Assembly (NCBI GenBank): GCA_964462865.1
Contig: CAYWZO010000002.1
Span: 820-64,819 of the forward strand
DNA length: 64,000 nucleotides
From: an uncultured Dehalococcoidaceae bacterium
GTDB taxonomy: Bacteria; Chloroflexota; Dehalococcoidia; Dehalococcoidales; RBG-16-60-22
Direction: 5' to 3'
Shown in pieces: positions 24,409 through 59,551 of this stretch. Every line of letters begins with the position of its first letter. Within the stretch, counting starts at the first letter, position 1. Below the pieces are notes generated by a model, which saw nothing but the letters and a program-made list of their open reading frames with translations, ran no database searches and was not told the DNA's origin. Position numbers and translations under genes: made by a program.

Positions 24409-24436
24409 GTTGTCATCTTCAGCGATATTTCTCTGG

Positions 24437-28575: not shown

Positions 28576-29244
28576 TTACCCGATGTATATACTCACTTTC
28601 GCAGGGGCGGCCGCGTCGCTAAGTTCCCTGGTAAATACCCCAAATTCGATTCCCTTTTGCCGGCTGTACTGGTAGTTCAGGCTGGCGCTATCGGCCTGGG
28701 TGGAAACATTCTCCAGTTTCACCCCGCGCAGTTTGCTCTTGATAAAAGCCGTCAGCTTGGCTTCCATCTCGATATCACCCGGACTGCCGAAAGTGATAAT
28801 CAGGGTGCCGCGTCCGCCACCGGAATACCCCCTGGCCAGCTTGTGGCCGATGAGGGCGATTATAGCTATCGCGAAGAGAATACCTACCAGCAGGTAGTTA
28901 AAAATAGCGCTGCCGATGGAAGCGGCGATGAGCAGCATGACAAAGCCGATTTCGGCCGGGTCTTTCACCGGCGTGCGGAAGCGGATGATGGACAGCGCGC
29001 CGAGCAGACCGAGCGATAGCGGCAGCGAGAACTGTATGCCCAGGAACAGGGCGGTGATAGCCGGGCCCATCAGCAGAAAGGAGCGTTGCACCCCGGCCCC
29101 CACGTTTTGCCGTCCGTAGAAATAGTTATACATCAAAACAATCACGACCGAGCAGACCAGGGCGAAACCCAGCGCCACGATAACATCAGACAAAGCAAGG
29201 GGAGTATTGCGCTGGAACAGATCCAGCAAATCCTGCCATCTCAT
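28576..29244 (-). CDS. DUF4956-family membrane protein
   Basis: Four to five TM segments with GALSIIRFRTPVKDPAEIGFVMLLIAASIGSA, followed by a small C-terminal soluble domain. Confidence 0.75.
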   Translation of the reverse strand: MRWQDLLDLFQRNTPLALSDVIVALGFALVCSVVIVLMYNYFYGRQNVGAGVQRSFLLMGPAITALFLGIQFSLPLSLGLLGALSIIRFRTPVKDPAEIGFVMLLIAASIGSAIFNYLLVGILFAIAIIALIGHKLARGYSGGGRGTLIITFGSPGDIEMEAKLTAFIKSKLRGVKLENVSTQADSASLNYQYSRQKGIEFGVFTRELSDAAAPAKVSIYIG

Positions 29245-29289
29245 TTTTCCCGTTTCTCCTTTCCGGCAACCAGCCTGAACGTGTACTTT

Positions 29290-30060
29290 TTATTCCTGCC
29301 ACCAGTCCGCGGATTCCGGCGGTGCCAGGTGTGACTCCACACACCTGGCATACTTGGAAAAAGCGCTCCAGCGCGGGCCGGCCTGCTTCAGAGCGTACAG
29401 GTTCCGGGGCAGCACGGTGGTGCCCCCCTTTAGCTCCAGCACGGTGGCGTGTAACGTCATTCCGGAGACACGGCAGGGAAAACGAGGCCCTACCGGCCGC
29501 GAGGAGATATCCGTGTCATAGGTCACCGAAAGCCCGGTAGTCGGCTCGCGGAACCTCTGGCGGCGGTAGGAAATGATGACCACCGGGCCAAGCTGTCCTG
29601 GCGGCAGCCAGCCCATTTCCGGGAGCACCCGTTCCAGGGCAAGCTTCCGGATTAGCGCGGTCAGGTTGGCCGGCAGCAGTTCCGCGCCTTCCAGCGGCAC
29701 CGCCCGCCGGCGCTTGTCCGTGCCAAAGCCCGCTTTGGATTTTATTTCAATATAAGCCGTTAATTTTTGACCGGCGACGGGCACCTGATACCAGCGCAGC
29801 CTTACTTTATTCTTGTAAACATCTCCGTTCAGACATTCATGATAAGAGTCCAGGGCAGGGGTATCGAAATATATACTGAAGACCGGGTTCGCGGGAAAGA
29901 CCGGGTCGACGATGCAGGCATGGTGGAGCCATCTCTTAACGAACGCAACGAAACGAGGCTGGATAACCAGTTTCTGTTCGAAACGCCGTATCCTGGTATC
30001 AGTTAACGTCATATCTGCTTTCCGTACCGCCTTTAAAAAATACTGCTTGTTCCGGGGCAC
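29290..30060 (-). CDS. VTC-domain (CYTH-like polyphosphate polymerase domain) protein
   Basis: RRFEQKLVI, SIYFDTPALDSYHECL, KVRLRWY, AYIEIKSK, DKRR, LELK and FSKY, in the order of bacterial VTC-domain proteins. Alternative start at ATG 30012. Confidence 0.8.
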   Translation of the reverse strand: MPRNKQYFLKAVRKADMTLTDTRIRRFEQKLVIQPRFVAFVKRWLHHACIVDPVFPANPVFSIYFDTPALDSYHECLNGDVYKNKVRLRWYQVPVAGQKLTAYIEIKSKAGFGTDKRRRAVPLEGAELLPANLTALIRKLALERVLPEMGWLPPGQLGPVVIISYRRQRFREPTTGLSVTYDTDISSRPVGPRFPCRVSGMTLHATVLELKGGTTVLPRNLYALKQAGPRWSAFSKYARCVESHLAPPESADWWQE

Positions 30061-30069
30061 ACCCGAGCG

Positions 30070-31281
30070 CTACGGCTGGGACGAGGTTACGTTATCCGTT
30101 CCGTAAACGCGTAGCCCGGCGAAGGACACGAACTCCGGGCTGGTGATGAGCAGACGGTAGTACTGGTGCGCCCCGGCATCCCCGGGCAGGAGGAACGTTA
30201 TCCAGTCGGAGCCGTTCAACTCACTATTTTCCAATTTCAGCCTGACCAGCCCGGTCCATGCCTCGCCGTCGGGGCTGGTCTGGAGTTCGGCGCCGTCGCC
30301 GCGCCACAGCTGACCGGGATTGTCCGGCCGCGGCTTGACGTCCAGCGCCGCAAGCTGCCGGGCCTCGCCCAGGTCGATTTTTACCCATTCCGACTTGGTT
30401 GCATGAGGCAGGACGACGTGCCAGAAGCCGGTCTCCTTCAGCAACGCCTCCGGACCGTAGTTCTGGAAAACGCTGGAAACCTCTAACATAGCTAACTGGA
30501 GCGTGATTTGCTGGTACATGGTCAGGTTGCCTGTGCCCTGGCTGCCGATTGCCACAGGCAGCGCCGGCTCTACCGGGGTCGGCACAGGAACCACCGAAGG
30601 CTCACCTTCTCCACTGCCTTCTTCGTAAACACGTAACCCGGCAATGGAAACAAACTCCGGACTGGTAATAAGCAAGCGATAATAACGGTAGGCCCCGGCA
30701 TCCCCGGGCAGGAGGAACGTTATCCAGTCGGAGCCGTTCAGTTTACTATTTTCCAGTTTCAGCCTGACCAGACCGGTCCATGCCCTGCCATCGGGGCTGG
30801 TCTGGAGTGCGGCGCCCTCACCGCGCCACAGCTGCTCGGGATTGTCCGGCCGCGGCTTGACGGCCAGCGCCTCAAGCTGGCGGGCCTCACCCAGGTCAAC
30901 CTTTAACCATTCCGTCGCTGCCTTCGGAGATAAAACAACATGCCAGAAGCTGGTCTCTTTCAGTAGCGCTTCAGGACCGAAGTTCTGGAGAACGCTGGAG
31001 ACTTCCACCATCGACACCTGGAGCTCGATTTGTTTATATTCCTTCAGGTTACCGGTGTTCTGACTGCCGGTGATAACCGGTATCAAAGGCTCCGGGACAG
31101 TGGGGGCTAACGTCAGCGGGGGCACCTGTGTTGTTGTTGGGGCTGGAGTTAAAGCCGGGGCCGTTGTTGACGGATACACCGTCGGCAGGCTTTCAACCCC
31201 GCTGACTTCCGCCTGGCCACAACTGGTACCAATCCCGGCGAGAGATAATATCAACAGTGAAACTAATATTACTTTAATCAT
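30070..31281 (-). CDS. Lipoprotein with Pro/Thr-rich linker and two nearly identical discoidin-like domains
   Basis: Lipobox IGTSC. Two 174-aa repeats each read EALLKET(S/G)FWHVVL...(V/I)DLGEARQL.AL.VKPRPDNP.QLWRG...LQTSPDG.AWTGLVRLKLENS.LNGSDWITFLLPGDAGA..YYRLLITSPEFVS.AGLRVY. Confidence 0.8.
   Translation of the reverse strand: MIKVILVSLLILSLAGIGTSCGQAEVSGVESLPTVYPSTTAPALTPAPTTTQVPPLTLAPTVPEPLIPVITGSQNTGNLKEYKQIELQVSMVEVSSVLQNFGPEALLKETSFWHVVLSPKAATEWLKVDLGEARQLEALAVKPRPDNPEQLWRGEGAALQTSPDGRAWTGLVRLKLENSKLNGSDWITFLLPGDAGAYRYYRLLITSPEFVSIAGLRVYEEGSGEGEPSVVPVPTPVEPALPVAIGSQGTGNLTMYQQITLQLAMLEVSSVFQNYGPEALLKETGFWHVVLPHATKSEWVKIDLGEARQLAALDVKPRPDNPGQLWRGDGAELQTSPDGEAWTGLVRLKLENSELNGSDWITFLLPGDAGAHQYYRLLITSPEFVSFAGLRVYGTDNVTSSQP
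30103..31100. repeat. Intragenic tandem duplication, period 522 nt (two domain-encoding copies)
   Basis: Copy 1 starts at 30103 and copy 2 at 30625. A 49-nt block is identical between copies (30170-30218 = 30692-30740), while flanking codons differ mostly at synonymous sites. Confidence 0.85.
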
Positions 31282-31297: not shown

Positions 31298-32794
31298 TCA
31301 GGAACCTGCTTTCTCTGCTTTGACATGTCCGATGATGTTGGCAGGCTCGCTTATTTTCCTGAAAGATTCCAGATGCCAGCTCTTCTGGGCGATTTTCCAG
31401 AAACCCCTGAAACCCAGTTTCATGGGGTATATCCGGGACTTATTTAAATACGCTTTGACCAGATAGTAGAGAATAAAGTAGAAGCGGTTAAACGGCAGGG
31501 GCAGCAACCACCGGTAGATAAATTTCCGGGTAAAAGGCAACCATACCATCAGCGGCCCCAGGGCGGAAAGATTCCGCTGGACGTTCTTTTCACTTTCGGA
31601 GAAACAGGTAAGCGGCGACTCATTCATATAAGACATGTGCAGCTCGGAATAAGTCGGCCGGTAAATTCCCTCCTTGATGCAATAATCCCCCAGTTTGGTG
31701 CAGGGATAGGGATGGAAAATCGGGAACTCCGAATAGGAAGCCCCGGCCCGGATGTTCAACTCGATAGTCTCAATCTCGTTCTGCAGCGTGGCGCGAGGCA
31801 GGCCCAGGATGCTGTTGGAAAAGGTATGGATACCGCGCCGCCGGCAAATATCGAAAGCCCGGATGATATCGTTTTCCTGCATATTACGCTGCAGGACTTC
31901 GTTGCGGAACCGCTCGTTGCCGGCCTCAATAGACATGCTGATGGAGTGACAACCGGCCGCCTTGAGCATTCTGGCCATGTCCTCGGTCATCAGGTCAGCG
32001 CGGGTAAGGCAGTGAAACGGCAGACCAATGCGCCGCTTGAACTTGACGGCGAAATCTTCCAGCCAGTCGTCCGACCGGTAGGTGAAGACATCGTCGTAGA
32101 ACTTGACCACCTGAAGTGGATACTTCTCTTTAACGCGTGCCACTTCCTCGACGATATAGTCCACGGAATGGCGACGGACGATGCGTCCTTTATTATGATA
32201 CATCTGGCGGAAAACGTGATTGAAACAATAAGTGCAGTAATAGGGACACCCGCGTGAGGCCATGAAGCTCTTCAGGGGCCAGCCCCGCATTTCCGTCGTA
32301 GTATAAAAGAGCTCACGGTCCGGGAAAGGGAGACTATCCAGGTCCTCTTTCAGGGGCCGCAGGTCGGTATTACCCCCCTGTCTGGTAACGATGTTAGGGA
32401 TATTGGTTATATCGTGTCCGTTTTCCAGGGCGGCCAGTAACTCGGTAAAGGCTTCGTCCCCTTCGCCGATGCAGATGGCATCCAGGGTACTGATACGCAG
32501 AGTCTCGGGGAAAAAGGTAACATGCGGCCCGCCCATCACCGTGAATACCCCGGGATGTGCGGCTTTGAGCCTTTCATTAAACTCGATGTAATACTTGTGT
32601 TCCCCAGTAGAGCCGCTGTAGGCGATTACGTCCGGGGCATCCCTCTGTATAATCGCCATGACGTTTTCCCGGCTCAAGATGCCCAGGCCGATGGTATGCC
32701 CGGCCTGTCGGGCCAGTGCCGAAATCTGCATCAGCCCCACGGAATCTATATAGTCAATATCCCAGACGATAAACAATATTTTCATTTCACTCAA
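31298..32794 (-). CDS. B12-binding radical SAM enzyme (class B, methyltransferase-like)
   Basis: N-terminal cobalamin-binding-like domain (KILFIVWDIDY...GEGDEAF) followed by the cluster motif SRGCPYYCTYC. Confidence 0.8.
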   Translation of the reverse strand: MSEMKILFIVWDIDYIDSVGLMQISALARQAGHTIGLGILSRENVMAIIQRDAPDVIAYSGSTGEHKYYIEFNERLKAAHPGVFTVMGGPHVTFFPETLRISTLDAICIGEGDEAFTELLAALENGHDITNIPNIVTRQGGNTDLRPLKEDLDSLPFPDRELFYTTTEMRGWPLKSFMASRGCPYYCTYCFNHVFRQMYHNKGRIVRRHSVDYIVEEVARVKEKYPLQVVKFYDDVFTYRSDDWLEDFAVKFKRRIGLPFHCLTRADLMTEDMARMLKAAGCHSISMSIEAGNERFRNEVLQRNMQENDIIRAFDICRRRGIHTFSNSILGLPRATLQNEIETIELNIRAGASYSEFPIFHPYPCTKLGDYCIKEGIYRPTYSELHMSYMNESPLTCFSESEKNVQRNLSALGPLMVWLPFTRKFIYRWLLPLPFNRFYFILYYLVKAYLNKSRIYPMKLGFRGFWKIAQKSWHLESFRKISEPANIIGHVKAEKAGS

Positions 32795-32825
32795 ACATAT
32801 CCCCTATCAGCGTAAGAGTCAGTTC

Positions 32826-33983
32826 TTATCCTTTATAAAATTTGATAATTGTGTCTATCACGTAATCTAACTGGGACTCGGTCAGGTGCTGGTGCACCGG
32901 AAGCGTCAGTATCGATTTAGCCTGGGTTTCGGTGACGGGGAAATCGCCTTCCTTGTAGCCCAGGAACTGGGCAGCCTCCTGAAGGTGCAGCGGTACGGGA
33001 TAATGGACCTTGGCCTCGATGCCGTTATCCAGCAGGCATTTATACAGATCGTTCCTCTTTTTTACCTGAATGACATAGGTATGAAAGACCTGCCTGATAT
33101 TAGGTTCCCTGACCGGAATATGGATGTGGTCCTCCATTCCGGCCAGCCCGGTATCATAGATACGGGCGTGTTTAATACGGGTGGCGGTAATATCTCCCAG
33201 GTCCTGCATCAGGCGCAGGGCTACAATCGCCTGAAGAGTATCGAGGCGGCTGTTATAAGCAAACGTGACACATTCATCGCGGTTGATAATACCGTGGTTC
33301 CGTAGCAGTGTTAACTTATCCCGGTATTCCTCCGAATTGGTGGTCACCATGCCGCCGTCACCCCAGACGTTAAGGTTCTTGAGCGGGTGCATGCTGAATC
33401 CGGCGATGTCTCCGAAAGAACCGGTCGGTCGCTCGTCGATCGCGGCGCTGATGGCCTGAGCGGCGTCCTCGATGACGTAGAGTCCATATCTCCGGGCGAT
33501 TTCCAGAATGCGCGGCATGTCCGCGGGTTTACCCGTCAGGTGCACCGGCATAATCGCTCTGGTTCTCGACGTAATGGCAGCCTCGATGAACTCGGGGTCG
33601 ATGTTGTAATCGTCTTTAACATCTACATAAACCGGGGTCGCCCCCGCCGCCACGATGGCGCCTGTGGTGGCCAGAAAGCTATTGGGCGGGGTAATAACCT
33701 CATCTCCAGCGCCGATACCCAGCACTTTCAAGGCCAGGAACAACGCGTCCGTCCCCGAGTTAACCCCCACGGCACACCTCACCTGGCAGAGCGTGGCAAA
33801 CTTTGCTTCAAATTCCGCCACCTGCGGGCCGAGAGTATACTGCCCGGTCTTGAGCAATAATTCTCTGACATCGTTCAACATATCCTCGGCATGCGCCTGC
33901 TTGGGGAGGTCGATGTATTTAACTTTCACGTCCTTGCTATCCAGATTGAATTGCTGCAGCAGATAAGAATAGGCGACCTTCAT
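32826..33983 (-). CDS. DegT/DnrJ/EryC1-family PLP sugar aminotransferase
   Basis: GTDALFLALKVLGIGAGDEVITPPNSF, DAAQA, and FSMHPLKNLN (PLP Lys). Confidence 0.85.
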   Translation of the reverse strand: MKVAYSYLLQQFNLDSKDVKVKYIDLPKQAHAEDMLNDVRELLLKTGQYTLGPQVAEFEAKFATLCQVRCAVGVNSGTDALFLALKVLGIGAGDEVITPPNSFLATTGAIVAAGATPVYVDVKDDYNIDPEFIEAAITSRTRAIMPVHLTGKPADMPRILEIARRYGLYVIEDAAQAISAAIDERPTGSFGDIAGFSMHPLKNLNVWGDGGMVTTNSEEYRDKLTLLRNHGIINRDECVTFAYNSRLDTLQAIVALRLMQDLGDITATRIKHARIYDTGLAGMEDHIHIPVREPNIRQVFHTYVIQVKKRNDLYKCLLDNGIEAKVHYPVPLHLQEAAQFLGYKEGDFPVTETQAKSILTLPVHQHLTESQLDYVIDTIIKFYKG

Positions 33984-34012
33984 CTTCTCACTCCTTTTTT
34001 AATTTCCGGTTT

Positions 34013-35425
34013 TTACCAGCGGAAAATACCGGGGAAAAACGTTTTCAGGCCGTAGTATCCCTCCATGAAGAATGTGCCCCGGCGCAGGGCAATCACCGTC
34101 CTCCGTAAAAGATACCTGGGATTCAGGTAGAAACGGGAGTAAAATTTATCATAATATTTCTGCATGATTTCATGGCTTAAGTTCGGGTGGGTATAGACTT
34201 CACCCCCGCCGTGGATTTTGTACTGCGTCCAGTCCCGGCTTTTAATAAGTCCTTTTTTCTCGTATTCCCAGAAAAGCCGGGCATCCGGTAAAGGCATGGT
34301 TACCGTTACCTTGGCAAAGTCCGGCATTAACCTCACGGCGAAGTCAATGGTCCGCTTCATGCTCTCTTCGGTCTCGGCGGGCAGCCCCAGCATGAAATAG
34401 CCGACCGTTTCCAATCCGACTTTCTTGGCCATTGCCAGGGCCCGCTCACCCTGCTCCAGGGTTATACCCTTGCTGATGGAATCCAGGCAGGTCTGGTCAC
34501 CGCTCTCGAAGCCGAAAGCCACAGTATAAAGCCCGGCGCGCTTGGCAATCTGGAAAAATTCCATGTCCACCCGGTCGACGCGCAGGCCGGCGGCCAGGTT
34601 CCAGGGGAACTTCAATCCCTCCCGGATAATCATCTCGCAGATGGTCTTGGCGCGGTTGATATCGGTGGTGAACATATCGTCCAGGAAACGCAACTCACGG
34701 TAACCCAGGGACAGCGTATGCTTGATTTCCTCGATGACCCGCTCCGGCGATTTGGTGATGAAACGCCGCCCGAATACTGTCTTACCGCAAAAGCTGCAGT
34801 CAAAGACACACCCCCGGCTGGTCATGATATCGCTCATGGGGGACTCGCGGGAGACCAGGCGGGAACACTTATAGCGGCGGATATCGAAAAGGTCCAGGGC
34901 CGGGAAGGGAAGCGCGTCCAGGTCCTCGATACGGCCCCGCGGCGCGGTGTGCTGTGTGTGGCCGTTCTCCCGGTAGTAGATGCCCTTGACATCAGCCAGT
35001 TTCTTGCCCCCGGCAATGTCCACGATGGTCCTGTCCCCCTCACCCACGGCCGCGATATCGTAAGTCGATTCGTTCAGAGTATCCTCCGGCAGAGCCGAGG
35101 CGTGAGGCCCGCCGATGACCGTCGTCACTTCCTTGCCGAGTTTCTCCTTGGCCCTGCGGCTGATTTCCAGAGCCTCAAAATACAGGGGTGTCGTGGCGGA
35201 AACGCCGACAATCCTGGGCCTCTGCTGCAACGCTTCATCCAGAGCTTTCGTGGGGTCTGGCTCGATGCCCAGGTCCAGCAATGAGACACTGATTTTCGCC
35301 TCGCGCAGCGTGGCCGCCAGACAGGCGATGGAAAGAATAGGATATCTCTGCACATAGGCAGTGACCTTGGTACCTTCGTACGCGTTAAAAGCTGAAGGTG
35401 GATTGATTAATAATACGTCACTCAT
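34013..35425 (-). CDS. B12-binding radical SAM enzyme (class B), second copy
   Basis: VLLINPP...VGVSATTP...GGPHASALP...GEGDRT, then TSRGCVFDCSFCGK. Confidence 0.8.
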   Translation of the reverse strand: MSDVLLINPPSAFNAYEGTKVTAYVQRYPILSIACLAATLREAKISVSLLDLGIEPDPTKALDEALQQRPRIVGVSATTPLYFEALEISRRAKEKLGKEVTTVIGGPHASALPEDTLNESTYDIAAVGEGDRTIVDIAGGKKLADVKGIYYRENGHTQHTAPRGRIEDLDALPFPALDLFDIRRYKCSRLVSRESPMSDIMTSRGCVFDCSFCGKTVFGRRFITKSPERVIEEIKHTLSLGYRELRFLDDMFTTDINRAKTICEMIIREGLKFPWNLAAGLRVDRVDMEFFQIAKRAGLYTVAFGFESGDQTCLDSISKGITLEQGERALAMAKKVGLETVGYFMLGLPAETEESMKRTIDFAVRLMPDFAKVTVTMPLPDARLFWEYEKKGLIKSRDWTQYKIHGGGEVYTHPNLSHEIMQKYYDKFYSRFYLNPRYLLRRTVIALRRGTFFMEGYYGLKTFFPGIFRW

Positions 35426-35472
35426 GTCTGTCCTCCCCGATTATGTTATGTAAAATACATCCCTGATTTTGC

Positions 35473-37593
35473 TCAATAATTCAACGAAAGATGGTATTCC
35501 TGGAAACCCCGCGGTTGAAATTCAATCTCTGGATAAACGTCCCCCGGCTGCCTGTCACGTATCTCATAGCGGCTGTGGTCAAATTCAAGATAGGTATGGG
35601 CAAAATAATATGGTTTGCGGTATTCCATACGGTACAAAGGCCCTAACTTCAGCTCGCGTCCGGTTAATACCTCGCCGGTATCGTCCCGCGTTTTTTCCGC
35701 GAGCTCTCCGTTAACAATCAGTCCGTATTCTCCGCCGCTCTTCACCAGGACGAAATGGTTCATGGAGACGGGGGACACGGTCACCGGCTGGCTCCGGTAA
35801 ACACTGGATTCCACCTCGTTCCCGTTTTGCGTTAGCGTATAGCCCAGTTCGAGATGGTAACTCGCGGGACGGCGGGCTGATGCCGTTCCGTTACCGTCGG
35901 AATACAGGCGGAGCCACCATCGGCGGCCGGCGGAAGCATCCGCCGGGGATAGTATTTCAATATATCTTTCGGTAATCGCGGGGTGAGGCATAATGCCGAA
36001 GGTCAGGCTGAAATCGCCCGTTTCCGGGGTCAATCCCGATGCTTCTCTGGTAACCACCTGCGGGCCCGGGTCACCATCCGGCCAGGCCAGGACATGGGTC
36101 GCCCGGTCCAGGCTCAAGGTCAGGCGCGGATTGTCTATAAACACGTAGGGGACGATATCGGTGCCCCAGGCCAGTTTCTCATGGGACGGGTAGGCAGATT
36201 CGGCCAGGAAAAGGGTATATTCGCTGTTCTCTGCGGCGCAGAGCCATTTCTCGGCGGTATAATAAATGGCATTGGTATGATACCGGTAATCCGTATACTC
36301 TTTCAGCGTCCAGACCGTCTTGGCAGTGTTCAGATTGAATAATATGATTACGGCCGCAATGAGTATAAAAGTGATATCGCGGGCACGCAGGGACAGCAGA
36401 CTGCCGGCATCCTCGTCTTGGGCGTTGAAATAGCGCTCGTAAAACAGGGTGGCCGTGACAATCAGCAGCAAAGCCGGGAAATAGGCATGGCGGGGCTGGC
36501 TAATGGTATAGGCGATACCCCGGCCCAGAAGAATAACCAGGGTATACCCACCCGCCCACAAAAATAACAGTCCGGCCAGCGGCAGGTGGCCGCGGGTGGG
36601 GCGGCGGGCTGTAACCAGCAAACCGAGCACGATAAGATAACATAGATAATTGTATCGTGAGAGGGCACCCCACCAGGTGAAGGACTGCGCCGTGAACGGT
36701 ACGTAAAACACCAGCTCGTCAAAGACCACCCGGGAAGTGGCGAAGCAATTATGCAGGAAGACCGTGTTGAAAAACTCAATGGGCACACCCGATAGCGAAT
36801 ACAATATATTATTGCCCGTGACAAGACCTCCGGGCGTTCCGGCAAAACGCGGCATCAGGGAGAAATAGAGGATTCCGTAGATGAGATAGCTGGCGGCGGC
36901 CGGCAAAGCGTTGTCCCAGAAGAGGCCGCGGCGGTTTTCCGTGTTCCAGCCCATAATCAGGGCCAAAAGCAGGAGCGCGCCCGGTAAAAATATATTAGGT
37001 TCATAGAGAAAAAGGGTGAGAAAAGCCAGTCCGTAAGCCGTATAGAGAAACCCTTTTTGCTGCCGTCGGGCAGACCATACAATACAGAGCATGGCCAGCA
37101 GCGAGAGAGAGACACTTAACAGTGAGTAAAAACTGATTGGCCACGCTATGCTGGGCAGGTTGGTGAAAAGCGTGATGAAAATTGCGGCCGCCAGCAGGGC
37201 CGGAACAATCTTCCGGGTCACCTCACGGACAAACTGGAAAAGCAGGGCTCCGTTGAGGGCGTGCAGCAGTACCACCACGAGGTGATAGTACTGGAAATGG
37301 ACGCCGAAGGCTTTTATCTGGAAAAACTCCAGCAGCCAGGTAAGAGGTTGAAAGCGTGATTGCCCCAGCAGCTCCATAAAGGCAATCTGCGAGACATCGC
37401 CGGGGAAGCTCAAGCGGTCAAGTATGGTATGGATGACGACGCTGTCCGAACGCGGCAAGTCGGAGAGCGTGCCCCAGTAGACGATGAGGGTGTAGGCCAG
37501 CGCCAGCACGAACACCATCACCCCGACCGGGATATAGCGCGTTCCCCGTTGCCACCGGCTAATAAGACCGTTTTTCACACTGCCGTGTTCCAT
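35473..37593 (-). CDS. GT-C-type membrane glycosyltransferase candidate (PMT/ArnT/TMTC-like N-terminus) with C-terminal LamG/concanavalin-like domain
   Basis: RFQPLTWLLEFFQIKAFGVHFQYYHLVVVLLHALNGALLF resembles the loop1-TM2 signature of PMT_2/TMTC-type GT-C enzymes. About 11 TM segments. The C-terminus reads HFVLVKSGGEYGLIVNGELA...LKLGP (LamG-like). Confidence 0.55.
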   Translation of the reverse strand: MEHGSVKNGLISRWQRGTRYIPVGVMVFVLALAYTLIVYWGTLSDLPRSDSVVIHTILDRLSFPGDVSQIAFMELLGQSRFQPLTWLLEFFQIKAFGVHFQYYHLVVVLLHALNGALLFQFVREVTRKIVPALLAAAIFITLFTNLPSIAWPISFYSLLSVSLSLLAMLCIVWSARRQQKGFLYTAYGLAFLTLFLYEPNIFLPGALLLLALIMGWNTENRRGLFWDNALPAAASYLIYGILYFSLMPRFAGTPGGLVTGNNILYSLSGVPIEFFNTVFLHNCFATSRVVFDELVFYVPFTAQSFTWWGALSRYNYLCYLIVLGLLVTARRPTRGHLPLAGLLFLWAGGYTLVILLGRGIAYTISQPRHAYFPALLLIVTATLFYERYFNAQDEDAGSLLSLRARDITFILIAAVIILFNLNTAKTVWTLKEYTDYRYHTNAIYYTAEKWLCAAENSEYTLFLAESAYPSHEKLAWGTDIVPYVFIDNPRLTLSLDRATHVLAWPDGDPGPQVVTREASGLTPETGDFSLTFGIMPHPAITERYIEILSPADASAGRRWWLRLYSDGNGTASARRPASYHLELGYTLTQNGNEVESSVYRSQPVTVSPVSMNHFVLVKSGGEYGLIVNGELAEKTRDDTGEVLTGRELKLGPLYRMEYRKPYYFAHTYLEFDHSRYEIRDRQPGDVYPEIEFQPRGFQEYHLSLNY

Positions 37594-37597
37594 AGCT

Positions 37598-38353
37598 CTA
37601 AATTCTCGTTACCCTGTTGCCCTCCCGCCCGGAAAACTGAAGGCGCAGGTAATAACGCGTGATGGTCTGGAAGGCGTTGACAATATTCCGGACGTTATTG
37701 ATTCTCGAATTGCCGTAGTCCCGCTGCTTGAGGAGGATACCCACCTCTTTCCAGGCAACCTTACGTTTCATCAGGGTAATGATGAGCGGGGCCGTAAAGA
37801 CAAACCCGCGGGAATGCACCTCCGGCACGGTGCGGATTTGCTCCGCGGGGAACACCCCGGGGCCGTTATAATAGCGCAGCCGCTTGAAAAACAGGGCATT
37901 AATCAGGCAGGTGTATCCCCAGGAAATTACCCGCCGGAGCCACGGGCGGATGTTGGAATTGACCATATAAGGGAGAATCATATCGGCGGTGCCGATAGCG
38001 TCAGCGATGGTCTCCAGAGAAACCTGCGGGATTTCTCCGTCACCGGGGATGAGCCACACGTATCTAAAGCGGGCTTTTGCCACGCCGCGCCGGAAGGCGT
38101 AACCGCAGCCCATGTTCTTCTCGTTGTGAACCACCACGACGCGTGAATCGGCGGCGGCAATATCATCGGCGATATGGCCGGTCCCGTCACGGCTGCCGTC
38201 ATCCACGATGATGATTTCGTAATCAGCAAACCGGGGAGCCATGGCGCGGCGCACGGCATCGACCGCCTTCGGTAAATTTCCGGCCTCGTTAAAGGCCAGC
38301 ACTACTGCCGATACCGTCACCGCATCCCCGGTTATTTCACTAGAAGGGGCCAT
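37598..38353 (-). CDS. GT2 glycosyltransferase, polyprenol-phosphate-sugar synthase type (Dpm1/ArnC/GtrB-like)
   Basis: VSAVVLAFNEAGNL...YEIIIVDDGSRDGT...VHNEKNMGCGYAFRRG...PGDGE. The short soluble size is typical of this class. The stop lies 4 nt before the GT-C-like gene. Confidence 0.8.
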   Translation of the reverse strand: MAPSSEITGDAVTVSAVVLAFNEAGNLPKAVDAVRRAMAPRFADYEIIIVDDGSRDGTGHIADDIAAADSRVVVVHNEKNMGCGYAFRRGVAKARFRYVWLIPGDGEIPQVSLETIADAIGTADMILPYMVNSNIRPWLRRVISWGYTCLINALFFKRLRYYNGPGVFPAEQIRTVPEVHSRGFVFTAPLIITLMKRKVAWKEVGILLKQRDYGNSRINNVRNIVNAFQTITRYYLRLQFSGREGNRVTRI

Positions 38354-39377
38354 GGAACTCCTCGTCGATAGGCTTGTTGACCGCCGCTGTCTGGTACACT
38401 TCGGTGTCGCTCAAAATGGCCCGCACCGTTGCGGCGATTTCCCCGGCACCCGGGTAAAAGAGTCTCTCCAGAGGGAAGGAGACCGGTGAGGGCACGTCCG
38501 GCGAAGCGACGATATGCGGCGGCGCTTTCAGGTACTCGAAGACGTTCCGGGTAACTCGCGAAACGACCTCCGAGGCGATGCCGAAGCTCTGCCACGAAGT
38601 ATCGGCCACAATGAGCCGGTGCGTTTTCCTGACGGATTCAAAAATAAGCGTGTCGTCCAGCGGGCTGACCGTCCGCAGGTCGATGACCTCGGTGCTGATG
38701 TCTTCCCGTTCCAGCGCTGCCGCCGCTTTAAGCGAATCGGCCACCATGATGGAATCGGCCACGATGCTGACATCGTCACCGTAGCGGCGGACAACCGCTT
38801 CTCCCAGCGGGACTTCGTAATACGCCTCCGGTACCTCTTCCCTCTGGTCATAAAGGCGGCGGTGGTCCAGGAAAATTACCGGGCAGTCTTCCCGGATGCT
38901 GGCAGCGAGGAGCCCTTTGGCATCGTACGGCGTGGCCGGCATGACCACCTTGAGCCCGGGGAAATGGGCAAAGGCGGCCTGGAGGCTCTGGGCGTGCTGG
39001 GCCCCCTGACCCCACCCCCTGCCTATGATAGCCCGGATAACGATGGGCACATGAGTGCCCCCGCTGGCGTAGGGCCACTTGGCCGCCGTGTTGGCCAGCT
39101 GGTCCATGGTGACCAGGAGAAAATCGTTGCGGGCGTGCACCATGACGGGTCGCATGCCGTGAAGGGCGGCGCCGATAGCCGCGCCGGTCAGGGCGGGTTC
39201 GGAGAGGGGGATATCGAAGACGCGGGCATCGCCGAATTTCCGGTGGGCGCCGAGCGTCGTCCCGAAGATGCCCTTGGGGTCGTCAACACCCACCCCCATG
39301 GTGAAAACCGAGGCGTCCCGCTCCATGGCCTGGATGAGTCCTTCGCTTAACGCCTCCGCGTAGGTCAGCTCTCTCAT
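38340..39377 (-). CDS. TPP-dependent 2-oxoacid dehydrogenase E1 beta-like subunit (transketolase Pyr/C-terminal domains)
   Basis: LTYAEALSEGLIQAMERDASVFTMGVGVDDPKGIFGTT...FDIPLSEPALTGAAIGAAL... Confidence 0.8.
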   Translation of the reverse strand: MRELTYAEALSEGLIQAMERDASVFTMGVGVDDPKGIFGTTLGAHRKFGDARVFDIPLSEPALTGAAIGAALHGMRPVMVHARNDFLLVTMDQLANTAAKWPYASGGTHVPIVIRAIIGRGWGQGAQHAQSLQAAFAHFPGLKVVMPATPYDAKGLLAASIREDCPVIFLDHRRLYDQREEVPEAYYEVPLGEAVVRRYGDDVSIVADSIMVADSLKAAAALEREDISTEVIDLRTVSPLDDTLIFESVRKTHRLIVADTSWQSFGIASEVVSRVTRNVFEYLKAPPHIVASPDVPSPVSFPLERLFYPGAGEIAATVRAILSDTEVYQTAAVNKPIDEEFHGPF

Positions 39378-39387
39378 GTTCTCCTCA

Positions 39388-40377
39388 TCAATAGACGTTG
39401 GTGTATAGTGCGACCGCGTCCGGGTAGGGATCGGCCTTGGCCCGCGCTAAGGCTTCCTGTATATCCTTTTCAATTTTTCCGGCAATCGTCCGGAGTTCGG
39501 CCTCGGTGGCCTGTCCAGTGGCCAGCAGGTACTCCCGGCAGCGTTTCACCGGGCATTTCTCCATCCAGCCTTCTACCTCTTCCCGGGTGCGGTAGCCCAG
39601 GTCCCAGTCGTAGTTCGGCCCGACGTGCTCCCGCCAGCGGTAGGTCCGGCACTCCAGCAAAGTCGGCCCCTGGCCGCTCCTGGCGCGCGCGATAGCACGG
39701 ACGCTGGCGCGGTATACCTCCAGGACGTCATTACCATCAACACGCTCACCGGGAATGCCGTAAATCTCGCCGCGCTGGTAGATGTTATCGTTGACCTGCC
39801 GGTGGTGGAACGGTGACTGGGTGGCGTAAAAGTTGTTCTCGCAGAAGAATATCACCGGCAGCCGGCGGAGGGCGGCGTAATTCATGGTTTCGTAGAAGAT
39901 TCCCTGCTCGGTGCCGGCATCGCCGAAGAACGCCACCGCCACGCGGTCGGTACGCTGCATGGTGAAAGCCAGCGCGGCGCCCATGGCCAGCGGTATGGAT
40001 GCCCCGACAATGGCCGAGGTCCCCATCATGCCGACCGATTCGTCGGCCAGGTGCATGGAACCACCCTTGCCGCCGGCACAGCCGGTAGCCTTACCATAGA
40101 GCTCGGCAATCATGCGGTGGATATCGCCGCCCTTGGCGATATAGTGCGCATGGCAGCGGTGGGTGCTGAAAACGGAATCGTCCTTCCGCAGGGCTACGCA
40201 GATTCCGGCAGCGGCGGCTTCCTGGCCGATGGAGAGGTGGGTGGGGCAGCGCATTTCCTGCTCCGCGTAGACCTCGGCGATGACTTCTTCCACGCGGCGG
40301 ATACGCAGCATTACCGTGTACAATTCGATGAGTGTTTTTCCGGGGATGTCCCCGGTTGTTCTTCGGCTATCCTCCAC
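39388..40377 (-). CDS. TPP-dependent E1 alpha-like subunit
   Basis: LYTVMLRIRRVEE, the GKGGSMH loop, and the TPP motif GDAGTEQGIFYETMNYAALRRLPVIFFCENNFYA. GTG start. Confidence 0.8.
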   Translation of the reverse strand: MEDSRRTTGDIPGKTLIELYTVMLRIRRVEEVIAEVYAEQEMRCPTHLSIGQEAAAAGICVALRKDDSVFSTHRCHAHYIAKGGDIHRMIAELYGKATGCAGGKGGSMHLADESVGMMGTSAIVGASIPLAMGAALAFTMQRTDRVAVAFFGDAGTEQGIFYETMNYAALRRLPVIFFCENNFYATQSPFHHRQVNDNIYQRGEIYGIPGERVDGNDVLEVYRASVRAIARARSGQGPTLLECRTYRWREHVGPNYDWDLGYRTREEVEGWMEKCPVKRCREYLLATGQATEAELRTIAGKIEKDIQEALARAKADPYPDAVALYTNVY

Positions 40378-40478: not shown

Positions 40479-41471
40479 TCAAATACCGGCCCGGATTCCG
40501 TCCATCTGTTCCTTCATGGCACGGATGTTGTAGTAGATGCTGTTCTCCGGTTCCGGGAACAACCCGGCCTCAAACGCCTGCTTGATGTCCCTGATTGCCT
40601 GGCGTATGGTCCTAACTGGGACAATACCAAGCTCGGCCTTTATCTTCTCGGAAGAAATCCGGTAGGACCGGTTATCCGTCACGTTGGTATCGGTCGTAAC
40701 CGGTACGCCCGTCTCCTCATGCACCATTTGAGCAATCTCGGCCACGGTGTGATTGGTCGAGCCGAAATTATAGACCTTTCCGTTTATCTTTTCGCCCGGC
40801 ATCTCGACCAGGGCAAGGTACAGGTCCGTGATATCATCGATATGGACGTTGGGGCGGTACTGTCCGCCGCCGTGAACGGTAATCATCCCGTTGACAATGG
40901 CGGTCTTGGCCATGATATTGACGATGACGTCAAACCGCATACGCGGGGAAACCCCGCACACCGTAGCCGACCGCACCGAGACCGTCGTGAAGTCCGGGCC
41001 GGCGGCGGTACCGACGATTTCCTCGCCCTCGGCCTTGGTCTGCGCGTACAGGGTTATCGGCTCCAGGGTAAGGTCCTCCGTGACCGATGCCTCCTCCTTC
41101 ACCCCGTAAACGCTGCTGGAAGACGCGTTGATAAACCGCCGGACACCCAGCCCCCTGGCCATATCCACCAGCCGGGCCACGGCGTCCCGGTTGACCTGTA
41201 AAGTTATCGCCGGGTCGAGGTCGGAACAGGGGTCATTGGCTATCGAGGCCAGGTGGATGACATGCGTGGTCCCGGATAACAGGAAACGCATCAACCCGGC
41301 ATCCCTTATGTCTCCTCGCACCACGGTCAACTGCTTGGCCGCCTTGAGACGATTACCGAAGAGCAGGCTATCTATAACGGTAACCTGGTAGCGCTGTATC
41401 AGCTTCGGCACCAGCACGGAGCCGACGTAACCGCAGCCACCGGTGACTAGTATGTTTCTCTCGTTTTTCAT
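40479..41471 (-). CDS. NAD-dependent sugar epimerase/dehydratase (extended SDR)
   Basis: ILVTGGCGYVGS and YAQTKAEGE (YxxxK). Confidence 0.8.
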   Translation of the reverse strand: MKNERNILVTGGCGYVGSVLVPKLIQRYQVTVIDSLLFGNRLKAAKQLTVVRGDIRDAGLMRFLLSGTTHVIHLASIANDPCSDLDPAITLQVNRDAVARLVDMARGLGVRRFINASSSSVYGVKEEASVTEDLTLEPITLYAQTKAEGEEIVGTAAGPDFTTVSVRSATVCGVSPRMRFDVIVNIMAKTAIVNGMITVHGGGQYRPNVHIDDITDLYLALVEMPGEKINGKVYNFGSTNHTVAEIAQMVHEETGVPVTTDTNVTDNRSYRISSEKIKAELGIVPVRTIRQAIRDIKQAFEAGLFPEPENSIYYNIRAMKEQMDGIRAGI

Positions 41472-41483: not shown

Positions 41484-43019
41484 CTATTTCAGCAACGTAT
41501 TGATATATTTATAAAGGGGGACCGGCTCTACCGGCGATTTATTGCCTACGATGCGTATTTTTAAGGCGCCCATGGCATTGCCGATAAATCCGAGCACTGC
41601 CGAAGGGAAGCGCTTCGCGGCGCACAGCGAGGTGATGGAAAAGTAAGCGTCTCCGGCGCCGACCCTGTCCACGAAATCCCGGGAAAAAACGGGGACAGCC
41701 AGGAAACCCTCTCTATCGAAATAGACCAGCGAACCTTTGTGACCACGGGTTACCACCGCGTGATGACACTTGAGCCCTTTGGTGACATCACTCACCAGCT
41801 CCTCAATCCTGCCGTAATTATCGTGAGTGGCCAGGCGGATTTCCGCTTCGTCAATGCAGAAATAGTCCGCCCGGGGATACTTGGTTATTAGATTGAAGCC
41901 GATATTCGCCGAGTTGGTCTGGACATTTATCGCCAGAAATTTAGCCTCTTCACAGATTAGCTTGATGATTTCTCTCTCCAGGAAGCCGTGTCCGTAATCC
42001 CCCACCACCACCAGGTCATAATTCTTGGCGGCTGATGCCAGGTAACGGCAGACCTGGCTGTTAATTGATTCCGGCAAGACGTTACCGTCCATAAAATGCA
42101 CCTCGAACAGCTTGCGTAGTATATCGGCTTCCACGAAGCGGCGCTTGACGATGGTGGGGGAGTTGGGACGGTAGAAAAACTTGGCGTTGATATTCGGCCT
42201 GAGATGCTCCAGGATGAACTGCTCGTAAGTATTCTGTATCCCCAGGCAGGTAACGACGTCAACGTGATCGCAGAAGCCAGCGATGTGGTTGGCAATTGCC
42301 AGGATGCCGCCGGCAAAACTCTCCCCGTAGATATATTTGGCAGGTATCAGTATCTCTTTCGGTGATTTCCCCAGCGGGGTACAGTAATGGTACTCATCAA
42401 TAATCGTGTCGCCGATCACCAGCACCCGCAGGTTTTTCAGGCCCTGTAAATGCTTGATTATGTCTTCGGATGAGTACCGAGCGCGGAACTCCTGCAAAAA
42501 GCTCTGCGCCTCATCCGAGAAAACGTCAAAATGGAGATTGAGCAGCTTGGTGGAACTGAAGGTAATCTCATCGGTAAAATGCACCCTGCCGCCGACTGAC
42601 CTTACGGCCTCTTCCTCTTCGCTGATTTTCCCGGTCAGGTCATCTTTGGAGTTGGTGTAATCGCTGCCCTTGCAATAAACATCGGGGGCCAGCTTTTTTA
42701 TACTCTCGATGGCCGTGGGCCATTCATTGAGCGCTACGTAATCCACACATTCCAGAGCCGCAATCGACTCTACCCGCAATTGCTCGTTGAATACCGGGCG
42801 TCCCGGCCCTTTGACCACGTAGACATCCTTGGTTACCGTCACCACCAGCACGTCGCCTTCTCTTTTGGCCGCCTTGAAGTGCCGGATATGGCCGGGATGC
42901 AGCAGGTCAAATACGCCGTGGCATTGCACCACGGTCCTGCCGTCTTTTTTCAGGGTATAGATAATGCCGGCAAGGCCATCCAGAGTCACAATCTTGGACT
43001 TTATTTCAGCAGTTACCAT
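41484..43019 (-). CDS. Bifunctional sugar-phosphate nucleotidyltransferase + PfkB sugar kinase (HldE/RfaE-like, domains in reversed order)
   Basis: N-terminal cytidylyltransferase fold with CHGVFDLLHPGHIRHF (HxGH). C-terminal PfkB kinase (VLVIGDTIIDEY..., VVTRGHKGS, DRVGAGDAYF). Confidence 0.75.
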   Translation of the reverse strand: MVTAEIKSKIVTLDGLAGIIYTLKKDGRTVVQCHGVFDLLHPGHIRHFKAAKREGDVLVVTVTKDVYVVKGPGRPVFNEQLRVESIAALECVDYVALNEWPTAIESIKKLAPDVYCKGSDYTNSKDDLTGKISEEEEAVRSVGGRVHFTDEITFSSTKLLNLHFDVFSDEAQSFLQEFRARYSSEDIIKHLQGLKNLRVLVIGDTIIDEYHYCTPLGKSPKEILIPAKYIYGESFAGGILAIANHIAGFCDHVDVVTCLGIQNTYEQFILEHLRPNINAKFFYRPNSPTIVKRRFVEADILRKLFEVHFMDGNVLPESINSQVCRYLASAAKNYDLVVVGDYGHGFLEREIIKLICEEAKFLAINVQTNSANIGFNLITKYPRADYFCIDEAEIRLATHDNYGRIEELVSDVTKGLKCHHAVVTRGHKGSLVYFDREGFLAVPVFSRDFVDRVGAGDAYFSITSLCAAKRFPSAVLGFIGNAMGALKIRIVGNKSPVEPVPLYKYINTLLK

Positions 43020-44021: not shown

Positions 44022-44164
44022 TAATAAAGTTTTTCCTCCGTGTCCCAAACTTCCTTGCTGTAAAACGCAAGTATTTTTACCTGAAAAACATTGAAATACT
44101 TATTAATAAGCAAACATTTATCTAAACGTTGACGTAATGCTTGACGTTACATGACATTTATGGC

Positions 44165-44193
44165 ATTATAAACAATAATAATACTTTTGTCAA
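44165..44193 (-). promoter_or_regulatory. Perfect consensus sigma70-type promoter TTGACA-N17-TATAAT on the minus strand, driving the 21-gene operon
   Basis: The minus strand reads TTGACA (44193-44188), aaagtattattattgtt, TATAAT (44170-44165). It lies in a visibly AT-rich 390-nt intergenic region. Confidence 0.65.
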
Positions 44194-51718: not shown

Positions 51719-51720
51719 CC

Positions 51721-57013: not shown

Positions 57014-57016
57014 CTG

Positions 57017-59544: not shown

Positions 59545-59551
59545 TACAACT

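Follow-up and report, generated by a model that had tools for sequence, protein, structure and literature searches.

A predicted heptose-tailoring operon with an E2/E3-less E1 alpha/beta pair in an uncultured Dehalococcoidaceae bacterium

The DNA analysed here, referred to as the window, is a 64-kb stretch of contig CAYWZO010000002.1 from an uncultured Dehalococcoidaceae bacterium (Chloroflexota; assembly GCA_964462865.1). On its minus strand, from 44048 to 31298, lies an operon that combines heptose-activation genes with an E1 alpha/beta pair, the two subunits of a thiamine pyrophosphate (TPP)-dependent enzyme of the pyruvate/acetoin dehydrogenase type, followed by genes for a glycosyltransferase, a large membrane protein, two radical S-adenosylmethionine (rSAM) enzymes and an aminotransferase. 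We propose, with moderate confidence, that this operon makes a modified heptose, which is installed outside the cytoplasmic membrane via a lipid carrier. The operon is genuine and is kept across several phyla. The firmest new points are the heptose context, the pair of proteins for lipid-carrier delivery, the distinct clade of tailed, E2/E3-less E1 enzymes, and the cultured carriers of that clade.

An initial annotation, made from the letters alone, had read two rSAM enzymes, a DegT aminotransferase and the E1 pair as a tailoring set for an aminated, C-methylated, possibly two-carbon-branched higher sugar. From that reading, the E1 pair as a sugar enzyme and the higher sugar stand and the C-methylation becomes only one option among several, while the rSAM enzymes and DegT now appear as accessories, not as the core.

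The operon

The genes are listed in the order of transcription; their spacing ranges from a 14-bp overlap to a gap of 101 bp.

43035-44048, minus strand: SDR1, an extended short-chain dehydrogenase/reductase (SDR) of 337 aa resembling GalE, UXS and WbpP (PF01370, 9e-60; motifs SSSCYG and YALTK)
41484-43019, minus strand: "reverse HldE", 511 aa, with an N-terminal nucleotidyltransferase and a C-terminal PfkB kinase domain (PF01467 and PF00294; motifs HPGH and GAGDAY)
40479-41471, minus strand: SDR2, 330 aa (6vo6/6vo8 are the nearest solved structures by a wide margin; 114 bits, E 6e-32, full length, with a common SPRMR[FL]D block)
39388-40377, minus strand: E1 alpha, the TPP-binding subunit, 329 aa (PF00676, 4e-79; GDA-x26-NN at 39832-39924)
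38340-39377, minus strand: E1 beta, 345 aa (PF02779, Transket_pyr, 4e-29; PF02780, Transketolase_C, 2e-32; C-terminus EEFHGPF at 38343-38363)
37598-38353, minus strand: family 2 glycosyltransferase (GT2), 251 aa, no transmembrane (TM) segment (PF00535, 2e-23); its first 14 bp are shared with the end of E1 beta
35473-37593, minus strand: 706-aa multi-pass membrane protein, no Pfam match, with a GT-C-like N-terminal module and a C-terminal lectin-like beta-sandwich
34013-35425, minus strand: rSAM A, B12-binding, HpnJ-like, 470 aa (PF02310, 1e-17; PF04055, 5e-20; CVFDCSFC at 34787-34810)
32826-33983, minus strand: DegT-family sugar aminotransferase, 385 aa (PF01041, 1e-107, 360.8 bits; pyridoxal phosphate (PLP) lysine motif SMHPLKN at 33375-33395)
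31298-32794, minus strand: rSAM B, B12-binding, 498 aa (PF02310, 6e-16; PF04055, 1.5e-22; CPYYCTYC at 32225-32248)

All five genes named in the initial annotation lie where it had placed them, on the minus strand and with E-values far beyond chance, and the motifs that it quoted (CVFDCSFC, CPYYCTYC and GDA...NN) occur once each, at the positions given above. Two further genes within the same range had gone unmentioned, those for the GT2 and the 706-aa membrane protein. Upstream of SDR1, a promoter is predicted by consensus match alone; it is the top-scoring such site in the 28-45 kb part of the window.

44165-44193, minus strand: promoter-like site, TTGACA-17-TATAAT, 12/12 consensus positions

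The E1 pair belongs to a distinct clade without E2 and E3

Both subunits carry the domains of a heterotetramer-type E1, including the TPP-binding motif. Against the curated pyruvate dehydrogenase (PDH) models, E1 alpha scores 333.7 with TIGR03182, under the cut-off of 393.85, and E1 beta scores 306.2 with NF006667, under the cut-off of 321, in an alignment that covers residues 1-323 only. Nothing similar to E2 or E3 is encoded in the 64-kb window. Queries with E2 and E3 of E. coli picked up their targets in four of the six canonical loci of a positive control; they are blind to AcoC-type E2 and to free lipoyl proteins, and therefore the screen was rerun with six added queries. At E<1e-3, no match to E2, E3, AcoC-type E2 or a free lipoyl protein was found in the window and 98 related loci (1.12 Mb in all; individual loci are cited by L numbers).

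In neighbour-joining trees, a simple method used here with a small outgroup, the E2/E3-less E1 beta sequences (n=38) form one clade with a bootstrap of 100, apart from six canonical E1 beta, and the E2/E3-less E1 alpha sequences (n=40) form one clade with a bootstrap of 97, apart from five canonical E1 alpha. Each of the canonical comparators has an adjoining E2, E3 or lipoyl gene. In the E1 beta tree, the E2/E3-less clade has the acetoin-type and Thermus enzymes as its nearest neighbours. Clustering with true pyruvate or acetoin dehydrogenases, the outcome that the initial annotation had named as speaking against its own view, was thus not seen, and its observation that the pair stands without E2/E3 partners is upheld, with a synteny to nucleotide-sugar genes that holds across phyla.

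The clade also has a mark of its own. In 34 of its 38 E1 beta members, the extreme C-terminus reads F-x-G-P-[FY], on an extension of 20-45 residues past the canonical model; none of the six canonical E1 beta has this tail, and the four tail-less members are nested within the clade. The tail is seen in the window, in L004, L009-L011, L093-L096 and L098-L099, and in most of L012-L091. In the Geobacillus complex, the C-terminus of E1 beta sits at the E2-binding face. It is conceivable that the F-x-G-P-[FY] tail could block the docking of E2.

An E1 alpha/beta pair without E2/E3 inside a nucleoside diphosphate (NDP)-sugar tailoring cluster is the arrangement known from the AviB and Plm enzymes, and the AviB1/AviB2 precedent that the initial annotation had cited is real (PMC4802897). 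These findings support the view that the E1 pair acts in a sugar pathway and is no stray E1 of PDH or of acetoin dehydrogenase.

Predicted heptose activation and the SDR enzymes

Reverse HldE contains both domains and both sets of catalytic motifs of HldE. The kinase-first, transferase-second order of HldE is swapped, and the score against the NCBIfam HldE model is 142 bits, under the cut-off of 521. This architecture recurs in 1211 representatives at E<=1e-30; of the 150 best-scoring ones, almost all align colinearly over the full length. A 2024 commentary lists three types of heptose nucleotidyltransferase only, that is, mono-domain, kinase-then-nucleotidyltransferase and isomerase-kinase-nucleotidyltransferase, and remarks that no role is known for CDP- or UDP-heptose (PMC11573728). 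By its domain order, reverse HldE is a large, uncharacterised family outside these three types.

A second heptose gene lies at the far edge of the glycan island that surrounds the operon, and its score of 189.3 with NF006506 exceeds the equivalog cut-off of 178.

10353-10943, plus strand: GmhB, heptose 1,7-bisphosphate 7-phosphatase

In sister loci, a GmhA-like SIS gene follows reverse HldE (L010, L011, L035 and L052), or reverse HldE is replaced by a set of GHMP kinase (HddA-like), GmhB and nucleotidyltransferase (HddC-like). The higher sugar of the initial annotation fits this picture, in view of the HldE-like enzyme, the GmhB above its cut-off, the GmhA, HddA and HddC analogues in sister loci and the relation of SDR2 to 6vo6. 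A core with heptose-activation genes is common to the related loci, and therefore the substrate is most likely an NDP-heptose.

The nearest solved structures to SDR1 are UDP-glucose 4-epimerases (7ys8, 191 bits), UXS and WbpP, and its counterparts in loci of Ca. Brocadia, L011 and Chloroflexota share 70-78% identity with it. It is probably a C4 epimerase or oxidoreductase acting on an NDP-sugar. SDR2, whose homologues (40-72% identity) adjoin E1 alpha in many loci, is a candidate NDP-heptose C4-dehydrogenase that would yield the keto-sugar. We provisionally take its nearest structure, 6vo6, to be Campylobacter jejuni Cj1427. Cj1427 functions as a GDP-heptose C4-dehydrogenase (PMC10680097).

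Radical SAM enzymes and aminotransferase

Both rSAM enzymes are of class B, with PF02310 scores of 64.5 and 58.8 bits (cut-off 32.1), a PF04055 domain and the CxxxCxxC motif. The best NCBIfam matches of rSAM A are HpnJ with 222 bits (cut-off 577) and then BchE with 153, and those of rSAM B are ApyD with 110 and HpnJ with 104 bits, both far under their cut-offs; AprD4 (6fd2) is the nearest solved structure for both. Neither enzyme falls into a characterised C-methyltransferase subfamily of the GenK, Fom3, KedN5 or HpnR kind, with 52-59 bits for KedN5 (cut-off 700), 113 and 86 for HpnR (650), and 131 and 80 for PhpK (600). AprD4 is a radical diol-dehydratase that gives a keto-sugar. HpnJ turns lipid-bound glucosamine into a cyclitol ether (PMC12583986). 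Since the best matches are HpnJ, BchE and AprD4, always under the cut-offs, C-methylation is only one option; dehydration or ring rearrangement is equally possible. The C-methylation put forward in the initial annotation thus lacks support from the family matches, in which HpnJ, BchE, ApyD and AprD4, all below cut-off, rank above the methyltransferases. A phosphonate pathway of the Fom3/PhpK type was ruled out, as the window contains no phosphoenolpyruvate mutase or phosphonopyruvate decarboxylase.

DegT scores 261 bits against PseC, under the cut-off of 423. Because the PLP lysine is kept, it is read as an aminotransferase and not as an RfbH-type dehydrase. Orthologues of rSAM A are 78% identical in L004 and 56% in Ca. 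Brocadia, where there are two copies. Those of rSAM B (43-50% identity) have a split transketolase as neighbour in L008, and in L002 a gene resembling transketolase. Judged by gene content across the family, the two rSAM enzymes and DegT are variable accessories, next to an invariant core of SDR, HldE-like enzyme, E1 alpha/beta, GT2 and large membrane glycosyltransferase.

Probable delivery through a lipid carrier

The longest matches of the GT2 among solved structures are ArnC (9hwj, residues 13-225), dolichyl-phosphate mannose synthase (DPMS; 5mlz) and GtrB (5ekp), all weak, with E-values from 2e-7 to 6e-5. The order E1 beta, then GT2, is kept in L004, L010, L011, L014 and L093-L095. The GT2 is probably a polyprenyl-phosphate sugar synthase.

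The 706-aa protein belongs to a family of about ten members and has at least seven predicted TM segments. In hhalign, residues 15-207, including the invariant D45..D50 of the first loop, match a PMT_2/TPR protein with 96.5% probability (E 1e-9). Its AlphaFold2 model (pLDDT 57) gives weak full-length matches to STT3/PglB (TM-score about 0.3), and the C-terminal part matches ConA/LamG-like folds. Sequence searches of solved structures were empty for this protein, and a second profile search added no homologues. Sister operons encode YfhO, a GT-C enzyme, whose gene in L094 and L095 comes immediately after the GT2/tailoring genes. From the family resemblance and the YfhO/GT-C genes of the sister operons, we read the GT2 and the 706-aa protein as a system for polyprenyl-phosphate-dependent, extracytoplasmic transfer of a single sugar, and the product is probably transferred via polyprenyl phosphate. 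A protein of equal length at the same position in L093 was considered as a homologue of the 706-aa protein and rejected, as the two are unrelated.

A flippase and a secreted protein complete the predicted route.

23089-24489, minus strand: MOP-family flippase (Polysacc_synt), 14 predicted TM segments (PF01943, 4e-8)
30070-31281, minus strand: secreted lipoprotein-like protein, 403 aa, with two F5/8-type-C (discoidin) domains (PF00754, 5.5e-19) and a signal sequence ending in Cys

Homologues of the flippase (44-54% identity) are found in L002, L004, L008, L093 and L095. The discoidin protein begins 16 bp past rSAM B, its orthologue trails the operon in L004 and L005, and its P/T-rich linkers are typical of O-glycosylated regions. 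It is a candidate acceptor or glycan-binding surface protein, and discoidin surface proteins in general may plausibly be acceptors.

The downstream minus-strand array comprises discoidin proteins, a VTC/DUF4956 pair, a 1374-aa beta-helix protein, the flippase and several multi-TM proteins that end in discoidin domains. The secreted or lipoprotein-like F5/8-type-C proteins at 13962-15203, 17445-18587 and 30070-31281 are paralogues, and the 1374-aa protein (24437-28561) has both discoidin and beta-helix domains. The VTC-domain protein and the DUF4956 membrane protein lie at 28576-30060, within the glycan genes. Four more proteins (15211-17409, 18580-21243, 21240-23132 and 11948-13423) have 7-10 predicted TM segments in a membrane part without Pfam match, and two of them (732 and 887 aa, 40% identical) bear C-terminal discoidin domains. 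Because their architecture mirrors that of the 706-aa GT-C-like protein, these four may be additional lipid-carrier-dependent glycosyltransferases.

Conservation across phyla

The whole operon recurs in the same order in L004/L005, with 48-80% protein identity (48% for the 706-aa homologue). In Ca. Brocadia (L010) and in L011, SDR, reverse HldE and a GmhA-like SIS gene are followed, after other genes, by a SPASM-rSAM, E1 alpha, E1 beta, GT2 and one or two B12-rSAM genes; in L010, an SDR, an acyltransferase and DegT come after the B12-rSAM genes. In the Chloroflexota loci L093-L095, SDR1, reverse HldE, the E1 pair and GT2 are all found again as far as the contigs extend. There, SDR2, a flavin adenine dinucleotide (FAD) oxidase, DegT, a split transketolase, B12-rSAM and methyltransferases vary, and the tailoring genes are followed by a large membrane protein that is either YfhO or the unrelated 706-aa protein. 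A further set of genes travels with the operon in other Chloroflexota.

11058-13993: DUF1616 protein, 10-TM 491-aa protein and 188-aa membrane protein

In L093 and L095, DUF1616, a protein of about 490 aa, a flippase and a protein of about 180 aa stand ahead of the SDR and HldE-like genes; L003 also has members of the 491-aa and 188-aa families, and L004 of the 188-aa family.

Homologues of E1 alpha are abundant. A metagenome scan with the E1 alpha profile gave 80 more loci with 44-57% identity, and the census below covers the 34 loci of at least 8 kb.

Tailoring genes: E1 beta in 34 loci, extended SDR in 26, DegT in 20, B12-rSAM in 18
Activation and transfer genes: reverse HldE in 14, GHMP kinase (HddA-like) in 11, GT2 in 9
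Less frequent genes: GmhB-like HAD in 7, GmhA-like SIS in 7, SAM methyltransferase in 7, HddC-like nucleotidyltransferase in 5

Loci that seemed bare at first look proved to hold YfhO, GT2, GT1, ManC and SDR genes. Together, the gene content of related loci from Chloroflexota, Ca. Brocadia, Solidesulfovibrio and Azospirillum supports a shared core of heptose-activation genes, SDR and E1 alpha/beta, often with GT2, GT-C and DegT.

Cultured bacteria carry related modules. On plasmid pDMC1 of Solidesulfovibrio magneticus RS-1 (L097, 6057-23206), the genes are GT2, GT2, rSAM, NUDIX, kinase, E1 alpha, E1 beta, SDR, DegT and SDR, and then a nucleotidyltransferase, a "phospholipid carrier-dependent glycosyltransferase" and a SIS protein. 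Azospirillum plasmids carry such a module as well, in A. thermophilum and in A. lipoferum 4B (AZO_p6; L099, 9524-14372); in the latter, E1 alpha/beta is accompanied by DegT and SDR.

Other TPP enzymes occur near such genes. In L095 (8169-12097), a transketolase split into N and C halves sits immediately upstream of the E1 pair, and thus one operon encodes two TPP enzymes. In L008 (17-1755), a split transketolase and an HD-domain protein are neighbours of the rSAM B orthologue, and the stretch examined contains no E1 pair; L002 has a similar arrangement with its transketolase-like gene. A single-chain TPP enzyme of the acetolactate-synthase/YerE type accompanies the E1 pair, a zinc-dependent alcohol dehydrogenase and a methyltransferase in L012, L048, L071 and L088.

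The flanks of the window (2353-8582, 44440-46350, 50879-52968 and 54875-62905) contain ordinary genes of anaerobe metabolism, namely those for a molybdopterin enzyme similar to formate dehydrogenase together with a NuoF/GltD-like fusion, for an aldehyde:ferredoxin oxidoreductase and EtfAB, and for a set of GlgE, TreS-Mak and glucan phosphorylase. No tRNA gene was found in the 64-kb window.

Proposed pathway and alternatives

We propose the following sequence of events, in which we infer the structure of the product, the exact reaction of the E1 pair and the roles of the rSAM enzymes. First, reverse HldE would phosphorylate and nucleotidylate a heptose phosphate derived from sedoheptulose 7-phosphate, and GmhB would remove the 7-phosphate, giving NDP-D-glycero-D-manno-heptose; the genes for this step are present, and its chemistry is deduced from them. 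Second, an SDR, most likely the 6vo6-like SDR2, would oxidise a ring carbon, probably C4, to a ketone. Third, E1 alpha/beta would decarboxylate pyruvate and add the TPP-bound two-carbon unit to this carbonyl, as proposed for AviB1/B2 and Plm8/9, thus forming an acetyl- or hydroxyethyl-branched nine-carbon sugar. Fourth, DegT may aminate a keto group in this lineage, and the two B12-rSAM enzymes may remodel unactivated carbons by C-methylation, radical dehydration or ring rearrangement. Fifth, the GT2 would load the sugar onto polyprenyl phosphate, the MOP flippase would translocate it, and the 706-aa GT-C-like enzyme, judging from its family resemblance and the YfhO of sister operons, would transfer it to an extracytoplasmic acceptor, plausibly a discoidin surface protein. 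Some of the tailoring may act on the lipid-linked rather than the nucleotide-linked sugar.

Several observations weigh against this pathway. All subfamily assignments are under the curated cut-offs, the matches of the GT2 to ArnC, DPMS and GtrB are weak (E about 1e-7), and the structure model of the 706-aa protein is poor at its pLDDT of 57. GmhA was not found in the 64-kb window. The dehydratase motif of the 4,6-dehydratase type (TDE/TSE) is in neither SDR1 nor SDR2, and the keto-sugar acceptor is deduced from the likeness of SDR2 to 6vo6 at about 33% identity, with 6vo6 only presumed to be Cj1427. The E1 pair of L009 (69-75% identity) stands without sugar genes nearby. Some sister loci bear genes for an NDP-sugar dehydrogenase and of the Gfo/Idh/MocA type; in these loci, the sugar might serve as 2-oxo-acid donor, not as acceptor. 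Finally, the clade is not limited to sugars, because one Streptomyces member sits in a polyketide synthase/nonribosomal peptide synthetase (PKS/NRPS) context: on pSGRIFU1 of Streptomyces griseofuscus (L096, 13989-16035), a tail-bearing pair (FAGPY) lies beside a condensation-domain protein, acyl carrier proteins, a phosphopantetheinyl transferase and ketosynthases. This pair may supply an acyl unit to a carrier protein instead of a sugar.

The alternative that survives best, which we regard as rather unlikely, accepts that the sugar is tailored and assigns the E1 pair another reaction, that is, the decarboxylation of a sugar-derived 2-oxo acid (for example, 6-ulo-heptosuronate), releasing an aldehyde for transamination or ligating the fragment to another acceptor. 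The E1 family consists of 2-oxo-acid decarboxylases, and DegT is present in 20 of the 34 loci, many of them in the order E1 alpha, E1 beta, DegT or DegT, DegT, E1 alpha, E1 beta. The sister loci just mentioned add their genes, of the UDPG/GDP-Man-dehydrogenase family and of the Gfo/Idh/MocA type, between the HldE-like gene and E1, and thiamine diphosphate (ThDP) enzymes with long, functionalised 2-oxo-acid donors for sugar branching are documented (PMC9306805). However, the operon in the window has neither an NDP-sugar 6-dehydrogenase nor a Gfo/Idh/MocA gene, its E1 alpha is nearest to the pyruvate- and acetoin-type E1, and the documented precedents for E1 pairs use pyruvate.

It is also possible, but improbable, that the sugar is the head group of a membrane lipid, as in the HpnI/HpnK/HpnJ pathway, in which case an HpnJ-like rSAM enzyme would contract or carbocyclise a lipid-linked amino sugar. 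The full-length alignment of rSAM A to HpnJ (222 bits, E 1e-65), the weak matches of SDR and GT2 to HpnA and HpnB, the action of HpnJ on lipid-bound glucosamine (PMC12583986) and the DegT of the operon, as supplier of the amino sugar, all point this way. The HpnJ score nevertheless stays far under the cut-off of 577, neither squalene-hopene cyclase nor HpnH is encoded in the window, and the predicted GT-C-type transferase, the flippase and the array of secreted discoidin proteins indicate an extracytoplasmic acceptor. A hopanoid or ladderane lipid pathway, with its sub-threshold HpnJ, HpnA and HpnB matches and no cyclase, was therefore set aside and survives as a low-probability rival only.

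A secondary-metabolite cluster, resembling those for aminoglycoside or oligosaccharide antibiotics, in place of an envelope glycan locus is very improbable. AprD4 is the nearest solved structure for both rSAM enzymes, deoxysugar clusters of actinomycetes typically contain DegT, SDRs and E1 pairs, and one clade member is part of a Streptomyces PKS/NRPS cluster; but instead of an aglycone, cyclitol-synthase, resistance or export gene, there are a probable polyprenyl-phosphate-type GT2, a putative GT-C, a MOP flippase and surface proteins, and the module is kept as an envelope-type island in Chloroflexota, Planctomycetota, Desulfovibrionia and Alphaproteobacteria. Least credible of all is an ordinary pyruvate/acetoin dehydrogenase E1 whose E2/E3 lie elsewhere and which stands beside glycan genes by chance: the PDH model scores just under their cut-offs (334 and 306 bits), the 39-46% identity to AcoA/AcoB and the close homologue pair L009 outside any sugar cluster are outweighed by the 36 of 37 long loci that hold the pair among nucleotide-sugar or glycosyltransferase genes, by the lack of any E2/E3/lipoyl match in 1.12 Mb although the same E. 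coli queries do hit four of the six canonical loci, by the monophyly of both clades (bootstrap 100 and 97), by the conserved 14-bp overlap with the GT2 gene and by the absence of the tail from the six canonical E1 beta.

Comparison with known systems

AviB1/AviB2 (eurekanate of avilamycin) and Plm8/Plm9 (paulomycose of paulomycin) are proposed to move a pyruvate-derived two-carbon unit to a keto-sugar (PMC4802897). They share with the window an orphan E1 alpha/beta without E2/E3 among NDP-sugar tailoring genes. However, they belong to antibiotic clusters of actinomycetes, and their substrates are 4-keto-(di/tri)deoxyhexoses or pentoses that arise through 4,6-dehydratases, whereas the window points to a heptose as most likely, has no dehydratase-type SDR and forms an envelope island in anaerobic, uncultured lineages; this comparison is one of context, not of sequence. 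YerE and ErwE (yersiniose and erwiniose) are similar to the present proposal in that TPP-dependent acyl branching of an NDP-keto-sugar serves an envelope glycan (PMC9306805). YerE, however, is a single-chain, acetolactate-synthase-like enzyme and not an E1 alpha/beta heterotetramer, and a gene of the YerE/acetolactate-synthase type is absent from the window. The nearest canonical relative, with 39-46% identity, is AcoA/AcoB, the E1 of acetoin dehydrogenase, which is encoded with E2 (and E3) and has no F-x-G-P-[FY] tail, unlike the window pair.

In the capsular heptose pathway of C. jejuni, with its C4-dehydrogenase, epimerases, reductases and PLP-dependent C3-dehydratase, an SDR oxidises an NDP-heptose at C4 and further tailoring follows (PMC10680097). 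In contrast to the window, GDP-heptose is made there via a GHMP kinase and a guanylyltransferase, and that pathway has no TPP enzyme, rSAM or lipid-carrier GT2/GT-C pair. For heptose glycans of the anammox S-layer, also considered, a preprint describes plain oligo-heptose along with GDP/ADP-heptose, and nothing there connects to this module; for bradyrhizose and caryophyllose, the literature gave no gene-level connection.

For delivery, the window resembles the three-component systems ArnC/ArnT, GtrB/GtrC, CsbB/YfhO and PpgS/Rv3779 in its small GT2, which weakly matches ArnC, DPMS and GtrB, its putative large multi-pass GT-C-like transferase and its flippase. It departs from them in a GT2 without TM helices, a putative GT-C from a tiny new family with a lectin-like C-terminal domain, a flippase of the MOP type (not GtrA or ArnE/F) and a donor sugar that would be far more elaborate. 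HpnJ, BchE and AprD4 are non-methylating B12-domain rSAM enzymes and the best family or structure matches here, and HpnJ and AprD4 act on amino sugars. The rSAM enzymes of the window, however, score two- to five-fold or more under the family cut-offs and have no hopanoid, chlorophyll or aminoglycoside context. As for the HldE/GmhA/GmhB pathway to ADP-heptose, the window has the same two catalytic domains and a bona fide GmhB, but the domain order of its fusion is the reverse of that in HldE, at 142 bits against a cut-off of 521.

Significance

To our knowledge, E1-like pairs that carry out TPP-dependent C-branching of sugars have been described only for a few antibiotics of actinomycetes, with little biochemistry. 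The present analysis places this type of enzyme in one clade in at least five phyla, almost always in envelope nucleotide-sugar clusters and often with heptose-activation genes. Such enzymes are currently named "pyruvate/acetoin dehydrogenase" or "transketolase C-terminal domain protein"; the clade and its F-x-G-P-[FY] tail provide an annotation signature that separates them from the metabolic E1 of PDH and acetoin dehydrogenase. Solidesulfovibrio magneticus RS-1 and Azospirillum lipoferum 4B, as cultured carriers, offer practical hosts for genetics and product determination.

Taking these points together, we put forward, as a tentative and doubtful possibility, that there is a widespread, unrecognised family of E2/E3-independent E1 carboligases, marked by the tail and mainly engaged in the tailoring of NDP-heptoses and other NDP-sugars, and that its product here, made jointly with DegT and two HpnJ/AprD4-like B12-rSAM enzymes, would be an aminated, C-branched nine-carbon sugar, radically rearranged and possibly carbocyclic, delivered by polyprenyl phosphate onto discoidin proteins of the surface-layer type.

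The operon also offers a concrete hypothesis for the use of NDP-heptoses outside lipopolysaccharide (LPS), a question called open in the 2024 commentary (PMC11573728). Unusual surface chemistry is indicated in Dehalococcoidia-like Chloroflexota and in anammox bacteria. If the carboligase family is real, NDP-heptoses would gain a physiological role outside LPS.

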